Origin: Candidatus Methylomirabilales bacterium
GTDB lineage: Bacteria; Methylomirabilota; Methylomirabilia; Methylomirabilales; CSP1-5
Assembly (NCBI GenBank): GCA_046758505.1
Contig: JBHIAH010000020.1
Location: forward strand, 1 to 37,085
Direction of reading: 5' to 3'
Length of the DNA stretch: 37,085 nt
This document shows, piece by piece, positions 1,795 to 31,736 of this stretch. The notes below the pieces were generated by a model. It saw only the letters and a program-made list of their open reading frames with translations. It was not told the DNA's origin and did no database searches. The position numbers were made by a program, and so were the translations under genes. Position 1 is the first letter of the stretch. Every line of letters begins with the position of its first letter.

Positions 1795-2292
1795 ATGCCG
1801 GAGATCGATCAAGCACTCATTGATGAAACGTGGCGGCGGATCCGAGGGTACGATGCTGCGACGGCCGTTGCCGAGGCGCAACGCTTCGCGCGGGAGCAAC
1901 CCGCGGTCCTGGGTTTTACGCGCGAGTTTCTCCGCGAGTTCGACGAGGGGACGCGGGGAACAGCCCTGGGGTTTGCCTACCTCCTTTTTCAAGCGACAGA
2001 GACGGCCCGTGGGGCACCGCTTCCCTCCCTCCCCCCCGAACAGATCGAGGAACGGTCGGCCATCAATACCGAGTGGCTAGATGACCTGGAACGGGTCGAA
2101 TCTGCCCCCCTGCAGTGCTGGCAGGATCGCCTCCCGACATCGCCGGTTGCGCTCCATATCGTCCGGGCGTACGCGCCGCGCCGCGAGCACGAGGAGGGGA
2201 GCGAGCGACGGAGACGCGCCCATCTCTTGGTCTTCCTCATCACGCTGCTCGACGCCTGGGCGGGGACGCAGGGGAACTCACCGTCGCTCTAG
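1795..2292 (+). CDS. Hypothetical alpha-helical protein
   Basis: 165 aa ORF with host-like codon usage, convergent with the symporter gene and overlapping its stop. Confidence 0.7.
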   Translation: MPEIDQALIDETWRRIRGYDAATAVAEAQRFAREQPAVLGFTREFLREFDEGTRGTALGFAYLLFQATETARGAPLPSLPPEQIEERSAINTEWLDDLERVESAPLQCWQDRLPTSPVALHIVRAYAPRREHEEGSERRRRAHLLVFLITLLDAWAGTQGNSPSL

Positions 2293-3659
2293 CGCTGCGG
2301 CGATCCGGGCCCGGAGGCCCGCGTCTCGCGAAAGACGAGCAGGCTCAGTCCCAGCAGGCCGATGAGGTTGGGGATGGCCATGGCCCCGTTGAGGGTATCG
2401 GCGATGTCCCAGACGAACTTGACCCCCGCCACATCCCCGGAGAAGACCGCCCCCAGGACGATAACCCCGCACCAAACCCAGCGGTAGGGGAGCGAGACCC
2501 AGACGCCGAAGAGGTAGTCGGTGCACTTCAGGCCGTAGTATGACCAGGCGAGGAGGGTGGAATACCCGAAGGTGATCGAGCCGAAGGCCACGATCCATCC
2601 TCCCACGGGGCCCAGGACCTGGCCAAAGGCGTTCGCGGTCAGGGCGGTGCTGGTCAGCCCGCTGGTCCACGCGCCGGTGAGCACGATCGCCAACGTCGTG
2701 ATCGTGTTGATCAGCAGCGTATCAATGAAGACCCCGAGCATGGCGATGTGCCCTTGCCGGATGGGGTCCCGCGTCTGCGCTGCCGCGTGGGCGATGGAGG
2801 CGGTCCCGAGCCCCGCCTCGTTCGAGAAGATGCCGCGGGCGACGCCGTACCGTAAGGCCTGGGCCACCGCCGCCCCGGCGAATCCTCCGACCGCGGCCTG
2901 GCCGGTAAAGGCCGTCCGAAAGATGAGGGCAAAAGCTTCAGGCACCGCGCTGATCCTGAGCAGGATGATGATGACCCCCCCGACGAAGTAGATCACGCAC
3001 ATCACCGGGACCAAGATCTCGGCCACCTCCGCGATCCGCTTGATCCCCCCGATGATGACCAGATAGGTGAGCACGGCGAGCCCAAGGCCGCTCAACCATA
3101 GAGGGATGCCCAGCTCGGTGCGGAACACCAGGGCCACCGAGTTGGCCTGCACCATGTTCCCGATGCCGAAGGCGGCCACGGCTCCGAAGAGGGCAAAGAG
3201 CCATCCGAGCCACGGCGCACCGAGGCCGTTCTTCAGGAAGTACATGGTCCCTCCGGCCATGGTCCCATCGGGTTCCCGCTCCCGGTACTTGACGCCCAAC
3301 ATGGCCTCGGCGTATTTGGTGGCCATCCCCACCAGTCCCGTGAGCCACATCCAGACGGCGGCCCCCGGACCGCCCAGGGCGATGGCGGTGGCGACGCCGG
3401 CGATGTTGCCGTTCCCCACCGTCGCCGAGATCGCCGTCATGAGCGCCTGAAAGGGAGTAATGTCCCCGGCCCCGAGCTCTGCCTTGTCCTTGCGGAAGGC
3501 TCCGCGCATGGTGAGCCGCCACGCGTGGCCAAAGCGTCGGGCCTGGACGACCCTGGTCCCGATGGTAAGCCAGATTCCGGTCCCGATGAGGAGGATCATC
3601 ATCGGGGGTCCCCACACGAAGGCGTTGATGACCCCGATCAGATCGAAGATTGCTTGCAT
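2289..3659 (-). CDS. Sodium:alanine/glycine symporter (AGCS/AlsT family)
   Basis: GxGNIAGVATAI..GGPGAAVWMW, TKYAE, RGIFSNEAGLG and FIDT motifs; many TM segments. Confidence 0.95.
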   Translation of the reverse strand: MQAIFDLIGVINAFVWGPPMMILLIGTGIWLTIGTRVVQARRFGHAWRLTMRGAFRKDKAELGAGDITPFQALMTAISATVGNGNIAGVATAIALGGPGAAVWMWLTGLVGMATKYAEAMLGVKYREREPDGTMAGGTMYFLKNGLGAPWLGWLFALFGAVAAFGIGNMVQANSVALVFRTELGIPLWLSGLGLAVLTYLVIIGGIKRIAEVAEILVPVMCVIYFVGGVIIILLRISAVPEAFALIFRTAFTGQAAVGGFAGAAVAQALRYGVARGIFSNEAGLGTASIAHAAAQTRDPIRQGHIAMLGVFIDTLLINTITTLAIVLTGAWTSGLTSTALTANAFGQVLGPVGGWIVAFGSITFGYSTLLAWSYYGLKCTDYLFGVWVSLPYRWVWCGVIVLGAVFSGDVAGVKFVWDIADTLNGAMAIPNLIGLLGLSLLVFRETRASGPGSPQR

Positions 3660-3749: not shown

Positions 3750-4084
3750 TCAACGCGAATCCACCCGATACCCTGCCTCCTGCCAGGCCTGGAAGCCCCC
3801 CACGAGCACGGCAACCGCAGGGAAGCCCCTTGCCTGCGCTGCGGCCGCCGCCCGGGCGGCCGACTTCTCCTCAGGTCAGGTTCAGTAAAAGACGAGTGAC
3901 GTGCCGGCGGGAAGTCCGCCTAGCCATACCTCGAACTCGGTGAGGGGGAGGCAGATTGCCCCGGGGATGTGGCCGCGGGCGTAGACCGATTCCCGCCGGA
4001 CATCGACGAGGAGCAGCGTATCCCCTCGGTCGAGGTGCGCCTTCACGGTTTCGGGGCCAGGCGCGCGATCTGATGTTCTTCCAT
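3750..4084 (-). CDS. Single-domain rhodanese-like protein, candidate selenoprotein with two in-frame UGA (UxU); 1-nt frameshift near 4053-4056
   Basis: Manual translation: MEEHQIARLAP/ETVKAHLDRGDTLLLVDVRRESVYARGHIPGAICLP...SLVFY-U-T-U-PEEKSAARAAAAAQARGFPAVAVLVGGFQAWQEAGYRVDSR. Shows rhodanese DVR, GHIPGA and LxGGxxAW motifs; TGA at 3884-3882 and 3878-3876. Confidence 0.8.
3842..3862 (-). promoter_or_regulatory. Candidate bacterial SECIS hairpin
   Basis: 8-bp stem CGGCCGCC/GGCGGCCG with loop CGGGC; the loop starts 21 nt after the second UGA and 27 nt after the first. Confidence 0.55.
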
Positions 4085-4090
4085 GCCCCG

Positions 4091-4119
4091 AGGCTAGCTT
4101 TAGGGTTTCTGCTTGTCAA
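4091..4119 (-). promoter_or_regulatory. Sigma70 promoter giving a leaderless rhodanese mRNA
   Basis: TTGACA (4119-4114), 17 nt spacer, TAGCCT (4096-4091), then 6 nt to ATG 4084; no SD sequence. Confidence 0.7.
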
Positions 4120-4151: not shown

Positions 4152-4940
4152 CTACCACCGCCACGCCACCCCGACTCCTGTAAAGTAATCGGGGTTCTTC
4201 GCATTGAACACGCCCACCCCGGCGCGCGCGTCCAACTGCAAATCGTCATTGATGAGATAGGTCAAGCCACCATCAAAGAAGCTCGCATTTGGGCCCCCCT
4301 CGCTCTCGGGTACACGACCAAAGTATTCGACGAATGCGCCCCACGTCTCGGTCAGCGCGAAGCCCAGGACCAGGCTTCCCGAGAACTGGTGGAAGCGCTC
4401 GTCAGCCTCACTGGCGAAGCTGTACGTGAGATTCGACCCCAGCGAGAATCGCTCCGAGAGATCCCAGGCCGACGCGAGCGTCACCTCGGGCTGGGGGTCG
4501 TCCTCGCTGAAGTCGTCATCCCCGGTTGGGAGCGTGGTCGCGACGATGACGGCCACGGCGGGCCGAGTCAGCTCGAACCGCTCCGAGCTCTCCACGAGCT
4601 TGACCTTGACGCCGAGCGACGTATCCTCGAACCCGTGCGCGTCCGCATCGTGACTGTCGAGCCAGACATGGGAGTTGCCGGCGAGCCGAAGCTCAATCCG
4701 TGGCCCGAGGCCCACGCGGAGTAGCAACTCACCCAGGGCATGTTTTTTCTCATCCTCGCGCTTCGAAAAGGTGTACCCGGCTTCGAGCTGCCATCGTCCG
4801 GGTGGGACGGTCTCGGTGCTTTCGGTGAAGTCGGGCCGGTCGGTGACGAGCGGCTCCGCTTTGGCCTCGGGCACGATGCCCCATCCTGGCGGGCCCAGCA
4901 GGATCAGTGCGGTGCAGGTCCATGCATACCCGCGCGTCAC
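4152..4940 (-). CDS. Putative outer-membrane beta-barrel (Phenol_MetA_deg / 'transporter' family)
   Basis: Signal peptide, LVTDRPDFTES..TVP.G..QLEAG N-terminal motif, alternating beta-strands, C-terminal aromatic (AWRW). Confidence 0.75.
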   Translation of the reverse strand: MTRGYAWTCTALILLGPPGWGIVPEAKAEPLVTDRPDFTESTETVPPGRWQLEAGYTFSKREDEKKHALGELLLRVGLGPRIELRLAGNSHVWLDSHDADAHGFEDTSLGVKVKLVESSERFELTRPAVAVIVATTLPTGDDDFSEDDPQPEVTLASAWDLSERFSLGSNLTYSFASEADERFHQFSGSLVLGFALTETWGAFVEYFGRVPESEGGPNASFFDGGLTYLINDDLQLDARAGVGVFNAKNPDYFTGVGVAWRW

Positions 4941-8808: not shown

Positions 8809-9114
8809 TCAACGGGGCAACGGGGGCGTCCTGTGTCCGAACAAAAGGTCTCTGAAGCTTTCGTAAACATCCCGGCGGGGACCCCCATAATGAATCTCGA
8901 TGCTAGACTCCTCGTGGTTGATCCGGTAAATGATGCGATACCTGCCGGTGCGGAGGGACCGGAAGTTTCTCAACTCAAACTGAAGTTCCCTGCCTATCAG
9001 GGGGTCTTTCGTGATGTCCCTCATCCCTGCTCGGACGACGGCCTTGATCGTCGGATGGAGCTTTTTGATGATGCGTGAGGCCTCGGGGGTGTAGCGGACC
9101 CGGTAGGTCTTCAT
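8809..9114 (-). CDS. Type II toxin, RelE/ParE family
   Basis: YRVRYTPEA...DPLIG..L...RSLRTGRYRIIY..GPRRDVY pattern; ATGA overlap with the antitoxin. Confidence 0.85.
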   Translation of the reverse strand: MKTYRVRYTPEASRIIKKLHPTIKAVVRAGMRDITKDPLIGRELQFELRNFRSLRTGRYRIIYRINHEESSIEIHYGGPRRDVYESFRDLLFGHRTPPLPR

Positions 9115-9383
9115 CCTTTCCCGAAAACCTCTTCGTGGCTGATCCAGCGGCCGGCCCGGGCCTCCCGGAGGGAGCGGCGGAGGGACGCCATCGCGTTTTC
9201 ATCGCTTAAGATGTCGATGGTCTCCAAGAGTCCCTCGAACTTTTCCACGCTGAGGAGGACAGCCGCCGGGACACCGTTCTTGGTGATGGCGACGATGTCA
9301 TCCTTTGCCTGGAGGTCCCTGATCAGGTCGAGAAGCCGATTCTTGGCTTCCGTGATGGGGATGAAGCGGTCCACCTCTTTCAT
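9111..9383 (-). CDS. Type II antitoxin, Phd/YefM family
   Basis: IPITEAKNRL..L......IVAITKNGVPAAVLLS.E.FEGLLET; GGAGGT RBS. Confidence 0.88.
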   Translation of the reverse strand: MKEVDRFIPITEAKNRLLDLIRDLQAKDDIVAITKNGVPAAVLLSVEKFEGLLETIDILSDENAMASLRRSLREARAGRWISHEEVFGKG

Positions 9384-9403
9384 GATCACCTCCGTGGGGA
9401 GCG

Positions 9404-19752: not shown

Positions 19753-21606
19753 ATGAGAAACCAGGCCAGAAAATCGGGTTCCCGCTTTTACGAACTGTAC
19801 TGCATCACCTGCGGCAGGCGGGTTCGCGAGGAAGAATCTACCACCCGCTGTCCGGCCTGTCGAAGTCCCCTGGATGTTCGGTACGATTACGATTACATCC
19901 GCTCCCGGCTCAACCGGTACTCCCTCCGGAACTCGCCGATCAAGGCGATGAAGTATCTCGATTTCTATCCCATTGAGAATCTGAGCTTCGTGGACTCCTT
20001 GGATGAAGGGGGAACTCCCCTGTACCGCTGCCGAAAGCTCGGAGAGGCCAGGGGCTATGCTCGCCTTCACATCAAAAACGAGGGGGCCAATCCGACCGGG
20101 GTGTTCAAGGACCGCGGGACCCTGGTGGAGCTTTCGAAGGCCAAGGAGCGCGGCGCCAAGGCGATCTGTGTGGCCTCCACGGGGAACATGGCCGCCTCGG
20201 TCGCCGCGTATGCTTCTATCGCCATGATGCCCTGCTACGTGCTAGTCCCCGAGGGCACCGCCATTGGGAAGATGGCCCAGGCGTTGAGCTATGGGGCGAG
20301 GCTGCTGCAGGTCCGGGGGACGTACAGTGACGCCTTCCGCCTCACCGAAGAGATGGGCGCCCGATATCACTTTTACCTGGCCGGGGACTACGCCTTCCGC
20401 GCCGAGGGGCAAAAGACGCAGGCCTTCGAAATCATCGAGCAGCTCGACTGGCAGGTCCCCGCGGCGGTGATCGTCCCGATGGGCTTTGGGACCAACATCG
20501 CCGCCATCTGGAAGGGGTTCAAGGAGTTTTACGGCATGGGGCTCATCGACCGCCTTCCCCGCCTCATCGGGGTCCAGCCGGAAGGCTGCTGTCCCATCGT
20601 GGCCGCCTTCAATCAGGGGCAAGAGAAGATCACCCCCGTGGAGCGGCCCAACACCATCTGCTCCGCGGTGGCGGCGGGGAACCCCCTGGATGGGGTGAAG
20701 GCCTTGCGCGCCATCCGGGAGTCAGGGGGATGTGCGCTGACGGCCAGCGACGGCGAGATCCTGGAGGCCCAGCAGCGTCTGGCCCGACTCGAATCGATCT
20801 TTGTCGAGCCTGCGGGGGCCATCCCCATCGCTGCCCTGCAGCCCCTCCTGACGAGCGCTCGGGTCCGTGCCGACGAGGTGGTGGTCTGTCTCGTCACCGG
20901 CAACGGCCTCAAGGATCCCCGCTCGGCCCTCCGCGTCCTCCCGTCGCCCGCGGCCATCGAGCCGTCCATCCAGGAGGTGGACAAGTTCCTCAAGCTCAAG
21001 CTGTACGAGATTCGGGCCGCCGGGGCGAAGAACGGCGACCGAAATCTTTTCACCGAGGTCCCCTCGAAGGGGGCGGTCGCCGAGCTGGTGAACAAGGAGT
21101 TCGGTGTCCGCCTCACCCCGGAGTATGCCCAGCGGGTCCTCGGCCTGGTAGAGGACTTCTTCAATAAGGGGAAGGCGGTCACCAAGGCGGACCTCCAATA
21201 CATTCTGGAGACGACCCTCAAGCGCGCCTCGGGAGAAGGGGTGCTGAAGGTGGAGGATTTTCAGGTTACGACCACCCTGCACGGTCATGCCGAGGCCAAA
21301 GTCTGGGTCCGGTTCGATGGGGAACGGCTGGAGTCGAGCGCGAAGGGGGTCGGGCCGGTCGATGCCGTGATCAACGCACTCAAAGAGGCAGCCAGCAGTC
21401 GGGGGCGGCTCTTTTTCGAGCTGATCGATTACCGGGTGGAGATCAACTCCCCCGGGACCAATGCCTCGGTCGAGACCACGCTGGTCCTGAAGGATGCCCA
21501 GGAGAACCGGATCGTCGCCACCAGGACCTCTCCCGACATCATCGTGGCCTCGGTCCAGGCGTTCGTGGATGGGTATAATCTCCTCTGGGCCCGCCAGCAA
21601 ACCTAA
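19753..21606 (+). CDS. thrC: Threonine synthase with C-terminal LeuA/CimA-type regulatory domain
   Basis: N-terminal CxxC..CxxC; KNEG.NPTG.FKDRG (PLP lysine), ASTGN, EGQKT, VTGNGLKD; C-terminal GVGPVDA..LIDYRV..DIIVAS. Confidence 0.9.
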   Translation: MRNQARKSGSRFYELYCITCGRRVREEESTTRCPACRSPLDVRYDYDYIRSRLNRYSLRNSPIKAMKYLDFYPIENLSFVDSLDEGGTPLYRCRKLGEARGYARLHIKNEGANPTGVFKDRGTLVELSKAKERGAKAICVASTGNMAASVAAYASIAMMPCYVLVPEGTAIGKMAQALSYGARLLQVRGTYSDAFRLTEEMGARYHFYLAGDYAFRAEGQKTQAFEIIEQLDWQVPAAVIVPMGFGTNIAAIWKGFKEFYGMGLIDRLPRLIGVQPEGCCPIVAAFNQGQEKITPVERPNTICSAVAAGNPLDGVKALRAIRESGGCALTASDGEILEAQQRLARLESIFVEPAGAIPIAALQPLLTSARVRADEVVVCLVTGNGLKDPRSALRVLPSPAAIEPSIQEVDKFLKLKLYEIRAAGAKNGDRNLFTEVPSKGAVAELVNKEFGVRLTPEYAQRVLGLVEDFFNKGKAVTKADLQYILETTLKRASGEGVLKVEDFQVTTTLHGHAEAKVWVRFDGERLESSAKGVGPVDAVINALKEAASSRGRLFFELIDYRVEINSPGTNASVETTLVLKDAQENRIVATRTSPDIIVASVQAFVDGYNLLWARQQT

Positions 21607-30563: not shown

Positions 30564-31736
<1,173 letters not shown>

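Follow-up and report, generated by a model that had tools for sequence, protein, structure and literature searches.

The window analysed here, i.e., the whole stretch of 37,085 nucleotides from a Candidatus Methylomirabilales genome, carries on its minus strand a rhodanese reading frame that sits between a beta-barrel gene (4152-4940, PF13557) and a Na+/alanine-type symporter gene (2289-3659, PF01235) and is interrupted by two in-frame TGA codons (Table 1). Read through these codons, the frame runs ...VDVRRESVYARGHIPGA...LVFY-TGA-T-TGA-PEEKSAAR...LVGGFQAWQEAGY..., and the observation of an earlier note, that both interrupting stops are TGA and are followed by about 40 rhodanese-like codons, was confirmed, with 41 codons up to the stop. 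When TGA was read as Sec or Cys, the frame scored 67 bits against PF00581 (cut-off 22.2) and covered positions 2-102 of the 102 in the profile. The "complete rhodanese fold" that the note had placed at 3750-4084 was not confirmed: the span is 335 nt long and not a multiple of three, and its ATG at 4084 lies in another frame than the rhodanese domain. The motif TAY-TGA-NNN-TGA-CC occurs a single time in the whole 2.99-Mb genome, in which no other member of the C/U-x-C/U-P rhodanese clan was found. We interpret this locus as a double-selenocysteine (UxU) member of the C/U-x-C/U-P-x-E-x-[ST]-[SA]-A rhodanese clan, encoded as a stand-alone gene. In genes of this type, both in-frame TGA codons almost certainly specify selenocysteine, aided by a single RNA hairpin; the copy found here is most likely a young pseudogene (probability of roughly 60%).

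Table 1 Features of the UxU rhodanese locus, in window coordinates.
Feature	Position	Strand	Remarks
-35-like hexamer TTGACA, probable leaderless promoter	4114..4119	(-)	5 of 8 intact close relatives, and likewise the broken G003 copy, have TTGAC at -35/-36 from the ATG
-10-like hexamer TAGCCT, putative	4091..4096	(-)	17 nt past the -35 box and 6 nt before the ATG; 3 of 6 positions match the consensus
Conserved ATG with the codons after it (MEEHQIARLA...), reduced to a mini-ORF of 13 codons	4043..4084	(-)	stop TGA at 4045-4043; N-terminus like that of relatives, MEETGIARLTPEEAKARLDRGD
Site of one-base deletion, C4 run	4053..4056	(-)	gap unique to this genome in the DNA alignment with relatives
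Rhodanese-domain frame	3750..4046	(-)	from the first in-frame start, GTG 4046-4044; 98 codons including the two UGA
Predicted first Sec codon (UGA1)	3882..3884	(-)	end of the central strand in the model secondary structure, i.e., the canonical rhodanese Cys position
Predicted second Sec codon (UGA2)	3876..3878	(-)	main Sec position of the family (CxU form)
Bacterial SECIS-type hairpin	3842..3862	(-)	8-bp stem, 3862-3855 with 3849-3842; loop CGGGC, 3854-3850
True stop TGA	3750..3752	(-)	stop codons of relatives (TAA, TAG or TGA) lie at most a few codons away

The genome, which is 96.8% complete, contains the machinery needed for selenocysteine insertion: the check for selA, selB, selC and selD proposed in the earlier note returned selA (607 bits), selB (333 bits) and selD (407 bits), all above their cut-offs, along with a tRNA-Sec. 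Its selD carries an in-frame TGA of its own, and in-frame TGA codons interrupt 8 of its 18 AhpC/TSA (peroxiredoxin-like) matches, so that Sec is widely used in this organism. These eight peroxiredoxin/thioredoxin-like genes are located on contigs C1, C7, C14, C79, C88, and C114 and include UxxC, TxU-type, and other arrangements; for the one on C14, the hairpin scan found no consensus hairpin after the UGA. Among related genomes, selA was detected in 53 of 61, including 25/25 of the high-quality ones. The nearest named database proteins belong to Candidatus Methylomirabilales/NC10.

Both TGA codons are conserved well beyond this copy. Within the genus, 7 of the 13 other genomes encode an intact U-T-U-P orthologue (G001, G002, G008, G009, G011, G012, and the unpublished genome G007) and three a damaged one (G003, G004, G005), while the search returned no orthologue in G006, G010 or G013, the last two of which are only 68% and 79% complete. 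Both TGAs are also present in 3 orthologues from another family. Six genomes of the genus additionally encode a second paralogue (LVCAY...U-G-U-P; L050-L055, L312, L315), often found beside RNA 3'-phosphate cyclase and FlK thioesterase genes; in G003 and G009 it takes the CxU form, i.e., a C/U switch inside one genus. A UxU pattern scan of GTDB genomes, a set that overlaps the related genomes (G-labelled) as both were drawn from GTDB, yielded at least 119 loci, and all 119 of the matches listed were rhodanese frames. Of these 119, 80 span Desulfobacterota/deltaproteobacteria, Chloroflexota, Nitrospirota, Nitrospinota, Planctomycetota, Poribacteria, Methylomirabilota, and Acidobacteriota. Genomes were tested for selA for 50 of the 119 listed loci, and 47 of the 50 scored over the cut-off; the remaining three comprised one with selB over the cut-off, one with a partial selB, and one with neither. 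Locus L084 lies on a 2.3-kb contig of a genome named Nitrospiraceae and is very close to the orthologues of this genus; neither selA nor selB was found in that genome, so the contig may be mis-binned.

The codons used at the two sites were restricted as well. A metagenome scan with any TRN codon permitted at each of the two sites recovered at least 120 loci, all of them rhodaneses among the matches listed. The 120 listed loci comprised 80 CxU, 33 CxC, 7 UxU and 0 other combinations, with no TAA, TAG, TGG or TAY at either site. Position 2 was thus TGA in 87 and Cys in 33 of these loci, and position 1 was TGA in 7, each of which also had Sec2, and Cys in 113. The UxC combination did not occur among the 120 listed, with ~1.9 expected by independence, a difference that is suggestive only; a UxC rhodanese with a different loop, U-A-C-P, was seen elsewhere (L022, G014:C11:11206-11496). 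UxU and CxU forms were mixed inside three identity clusters, at up to 88% identity, and no UxU form fell in the identity cluster holding CxC forms; some whole clades were fixed for UxU. A shorter pattern applied to 251 genomes of the phylum was discarded: it matched in 34, the 30 loci checked were 16 rhodaneses and 14 chance matches, and its apparent "UUU" matches turned out to be other reading frames.

We also estimated selection on the part of the gene that lies behind the two TGAs. Over the 38 codons past UGA2, pairwise dN/dS had a median of 0.23 for the 8 pairs that include this genome and 0.22 for the other pairs of the nine sequences, which indicates purifying selection downstream of the second UGA. 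These results bear on the reading in which the two TGAs are nonsense mutations in a decayed Cys gene, or in which TGA stands for Trp or Gly genome-wide. It is true that this copy does bear another lesion (see below), but TGA occurs at both sites across phyla in genomes with selA, the residue aligned to it is Cys and not Trp, and translation with table 11 yields full-length housekeeping genes that end in TGA. Since the UGAs are conserved, the codon spectrum is restricted and the downstream dN/dS is low, nonsense decay of the two codons can be excluded; together with the SECIS covariation described next, this refutes decay and recoding alike, and we consider either hardly credible. The proposal of the earlier note that both Cys positions are Sec was hence supported by every one of its suggested tests that was run, including the alignment of TGA with Cys at both positions and the purifying selection in the downstream half.

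A conserved SECIS-type hairpin was found downstream of the UGAs (-16.9 kcal/mol). Its loop starts 27 nt past UGA1 and 21 nt past UGA2, and for both UGAs the hairpin agrees with the published bacterial SECIS consensus, for which the available text of PMC13188914 gives a spacing of 16-37 nt. Both distances also fall inside the range of this genome, in which the best hairpins lie 13-33 nt past 8 of the 9 other UGA sites. For comparison across the family, we retained 115 of the 119 listed genome UxU loci, 78 of 80 CxU, 33 of 33 CxC and 7 of 7 metagenome UxU loci, short and duplicate rows being dropped. Stem pair 29-35 was formed in 115/115 UxU and 78/78 CxU genes compared to 14/33 CxC genes, and stem pair 26-38, at which T-A, C-G, and G-C all occur, in 113/115, 78/78, and 15/33, respectively. 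The loop G was present in 115/115 UxU, 78/78 CxU, and 12/33 CxC genes, while the residue encoded there varies (R, G, S, W); two other stem pairs are uninformative because they are fixed by Ala codons. Relative to synonymous recodings, the mean stem probability was 0.88 vs 0.23 in UxU, 0.91 vs 0.14 in CxU, and 0.33 vs 0.17 in CxC genes. This is strong comparative evidence that third codon positions preserve the hairpin in UxU and CxU genes and not in CxC genes. Taken by itself, the hairpin of this copy showed no extra stability over dinucleotide shuffles (z of -0.5 to +0.3), and a scan of the window at Rfam gathering thresholds returned only a tRNA at 31661 and no SECIS model match.

The hairpin register is identical in CxU and UxU genes, so nothing points to an adaptation of the SECIS to UGA1, and a single SECIS would have to serve both UGAs if both are decoded. 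In intact relatives, SelB acting on this one in-frame hairpin would deliver Sec-tRNA to UGA1 and, two codons later, to UGA2. The hairpin and its spacing are seen directly in the comparison, from which we infer the double decoding itself. The shared register, together with the fact that position 1 flips between C and U within close clades (e.g., at 88% identity), could also be taken to mean that only UGA2 encodes Sec, with UGA1 either read inefficiently (low-level Sec, or misreading as Cys or Trp) or mostly terminating translation as a selenium-dependent throttle. We regard this as very unlikely, as position 1 is TGA or TGY in 120/120 listed loci and never TAA, TAG or TGG, whole clades are fixed for UxU, and 27 nt lies inside both the SECIS consensus available from PMC13188914 and this genome's own range.

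Decoding of both UGAs thus remains the preferred reading for the family, but the gene found here was taken as complete in the earlier note, which had missed a frameshift near its 5' end. The out-of-frame start MEEHQIARLA resembles the start of relatives, e.g., MEETGIARLT, and the distance from the ATG to UGA1 is 200 nt here compared to 198 or 201 nt in 11 intact relatives. A recent one-base deletion at codon 10-11 uncouples the conserved ATG from the rhodanese domain, and this copy has no single open frame from that ATG to the stop. In the wider family, a stop within 55 codons upstream is present in only 3 of the 119 listed UxU loci. Other copies in the genus are damaged too: the G003 orthologue has a 20-nt deletion and those of G004 and G005 lack their 5' part, for a total of 4/11 damaged genus copies. 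Damage to the gene has thus occurred on at least three occasions within the genus. Over the whole gene, pairwise dN/dS had a median of 0.26 for pairs that include this copy and 0.22 for others, i.e., no clear relaxation, which suggests that the lesion is recent. Because the deletion separates the conserved ATG from the domain, we most likely see a young pseudogene here; its full-length product is probably no longer made, and the copy is a doubtful source of protein. The promoter-like signals and the SECIS are intact in this copy, which fits a very recent lesion and would equally fit a gene that still works.

The promoter-like signals consist of TTGACA and TAGCCT hexamers upstream of the ATG. 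The arrangement TTGACA-17-TAGCCT-6-ATG recurs in 5 of the 8 intact close relatives, and the -10 pattern TA-x-x-x-T is kept in relatives that share TTGAC (TACGCT, TAAGTT, TAAGGT), suggesting a leaderless transcript that starts at 4084. Genome-wide, such leaderless-like geometry was weakly enriched (19 vs 6, 9, 9, and 16 at control spacings), and a consensus scanner called neither a promoter nor a terminator between 3600 and 4300. The porin and symporter genes that flank the frame here are beside it in none of the relatives examined, the upstream ABC exporter alone recurs, in a few relatives, and other neighbours vary; the local gene context hence gives no indication of function. Elsewhere in the window, a Phd/YefM antitoxin and ParE-like toxin pair (8809-9389, minus strand) lies upstream of two ABC exporter genes, and a PLP-dependent (PALP) enzyme is fused to a C-terminal LeuA allosteric dimerisation domain (19753-21606, plus strand), an uncommon-looking pairing.

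The gene may still work here if translation starts at the leaderless ATG, stops at TGA 4045-4043 and re-initiates at the overlapping GTG 4046 (GTGA coupling), which would yield a 98-residue UxU protein short of 13 N-terminal residues. The GTGA overlap between mini-ORF and GTG is present in the sequence, the promoter-like boxes, SECIS, and all active-site residues are intact, dN/dS is not raised, and the gene is the only clan member found in the genome. Judged from a model of an intact relative, the product would be missing a strand of two residues and the first turn of helix 1, and the solved PspE structure (2jtq), which matches the family profile only from position 23, folds without that region. 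Conversely, GTG 4046 is an ordinary Val codon kept in relatives, so that any upstream -1 shift would create the GTGA overlap; no Shine-Dalgarno sequence precedes it, the lost R-I/L-x-x-x-E stretch belongs to the family consensus, and three other genomes of the genus have lost the 5' part of the gene. Re-initiation is thus conceivable but doubtful. Neither transcriptional slippage nor a programmed -1 frameshift is likely at this site, since inspection of the sequence showed only the C4 run and no X XXY YYZ heptamer.

Alternatively, the frameshift could be a feature of the assembly or of the dominant strain, with the organism's gene usually intact. The affected site is a short homopolymer, rare variants are lost from contigs, and the available data stem from four runs of one study, consulted as contigs and possibly the source of this DNA. 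However, contigs from all four separately assembled runs, at depths of 16-36, span the site without a gap or listed indel. They exclude a one-off assembly slip and, coming from one study, as contigs only and possibly from the source itself, leave room for rare intact variants; we consider an artefact of this kind improbable. A young pseudogene accordingly remains the preferred reading of this copy. Overall, the double-Sec signal is real and well supported, it is of a kind already known, and the copy at this locus is frameshifted.

An AlphaFold2 model built from a 68-sequence alignment (pLDDT 92.6) matched solved rhodaneses with Foldseek TM scores of 0.76-0.89. In this model, Sec1 follows the central strand, where rhodaneses carry the catalytic Cys. 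Compared to canonical enzymes, the active-site loop has two extra residues and holds a second Cys/Sec, a Pro, and an acidic residue, and because of this greater length HMMER aligns the canonical Cys to either position. According to the accessible part of PMC10135228, a Cx4R/T loop directly after the strand is the thiosulfate sulfurtransferase pattern, and Cx5R that of Cdc25/arsenate reductases. Counted from Sec1, Cx4R/T is out of register by two residues; counted from Sec2, U-P-x-E-x-T/S is in register, with T in 75 of the 119 listed loci. No Cx5R loop of the Cdc25/arsenate-reductase type was present, position +6 being A, S, G, K, Y or E and position +8 S or A. Sec usually takes the place of a reactive Cys, and position 2 is Sec in most members, so Sec2 is probably the nucleophile and position 1 its redox partner. 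The pair may cycle via a diselenide or a seleno-persulfide, with a selenenylsulfide formed between positions 1 and 2 in CxU proteins and a diselenide in UxU proteins.

Fusions to other domains fit a role as a carrier or reductant of sulfane sulfur or selenium. Of the 119 listed UxU domains, 24 (L069, L073, L083, and 21 more) are joined to a C-terminal multiheme cytochrome c, which has 8 CxxCH if complete and distantly matches hydrazine dehydrogenase (84 bits against a cut-off of 900); the CxU domains have DedA proteins as fusion partners. We put at about even odds that the protein carries or reduces sulfane sulfur or selenium species rather than performing GlpE-type thiosulfate:cyanide transfer. 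Gene callers would split the UxU-cytochrome fusions at their UGAs. Two of the CxU rhodanese-DedA fusions (L018 on G005:C7 and L020 on G004:C6) share their contig with selA in both genomes, at a distance of ~10 kb. In one UxU locus (L105), the rhodanese frame runs on for 164 codons, an extension that may be a YHS-type domain. Combined into a single picture, UxU rhodaneses would be widespread bacterial redox proteins that are routinely truncated; a single SECIS would have SelB decode both UGAs, one codon apart, and the resulting Se-Se centre would supply sulfane sulfur or selenium to partners, for instance the octaheme cytochromes to which 24 of the 119 listed members are fused, with the gene at this locus surviving its frameshift by GTGA re-initiation; as a whole, this picture is speculative and unlikely to hold in every part.

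The family is only partly visible in current databases. Among 14 relatives in databases, the recorded protein stops at the first UGA in 11 cases and at the second in 2 (CxU), the remaining one being aberrant; the relatives that end at a UGA are entered as proteins of 63-80 aa; a search among 30-60 aa proteins found no relatives. The earlier claim that ORF callers miss the gene entirely was therefore too strong, even though the database proteins do stop at a UGA, most often the first one. The family data further show that the UxU form is common in Sec-using anaerobic lineages, although it has been in print once (2007) and is absent from the family's entry in a 2026 catalogue, as far as the available text of both goes. 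With one hairpin and two codons, at 21 and 27 nt, it offers a natural test of the SECIS-to-UGA distance in bacteria. The locus described here probably harbours a decaying gene of a known selenoprotein type; an intact orthologue is better suited for study. The literature search, with subscription papers and supplements outside its coverage, found no experimental study of the UxU rhodanese family, and none of the literature searched reported a test of double decoding from one hairpin or of UxU chemistry.

Two Sec residues separated by one residue, which the earlier note considered unusual, are not without precedent. A UxU form of a rhodanese-related sulfurtransferase selenoprotein was reported from the Olavius algarvensis symbiont metagenome (Zhang and Gladyshev 2007, PMC1976440, Fig. 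3A), and the protein encoded in the window shares with it, in the portion of that paper available, the same U-x-U in the active-site loop, a likeness at the level of the motif. A UxU member from the genome of an Olavius Delta 3 symbiont (L143) shares 38% identity with the window protein across 95 residues, in an alignment that matches the loops; unlike the window's clade, whose members are ~110 aa and lack such a segment, it has an N-terminal hydrophobic extension, and the window copy is, in addition, frameshifted. A 2026 review lists the family as form 3, NF041203, of CxU type with one Sec, and the string UxU does not appear in its accessible text (PMC13188914). NF041203 (rhodanese_LYCAU equivalog) is the best NCBIfam match of the window protein, at 68 bits and thus below the cut-off of 115; it is matched by 68/68 UxU sequences, passed by the longer UxU members L143, L124, and L069 (149, 146, and 139 bits), and matched at 80 bits by another short cytoplasmic-type member. 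The CxU genes of the NF041203 type share the SECIS register of the UxU genes. The single-domain sulfurtransferases GlpE and PspE and the rhodanese domains of Alr3790 and BH2092 share the fold, with TM scores of 0.80 to 1gmx and 0.89 to 3ilm and 3nhv, but the window protein scored 29 bits on the GlpE model (cut-off 102) and has a loop two residues longer. Finally, the rhodanese/DsbD fusion TsoB (NF045694, UxxxxU), as described in the available text of PMC13188914, also has a rhodanese domain with two Sec, but it differs in the spacing of these residues and in being a large fusion, the window protein reaching 29 bits against its cut-off of 805.
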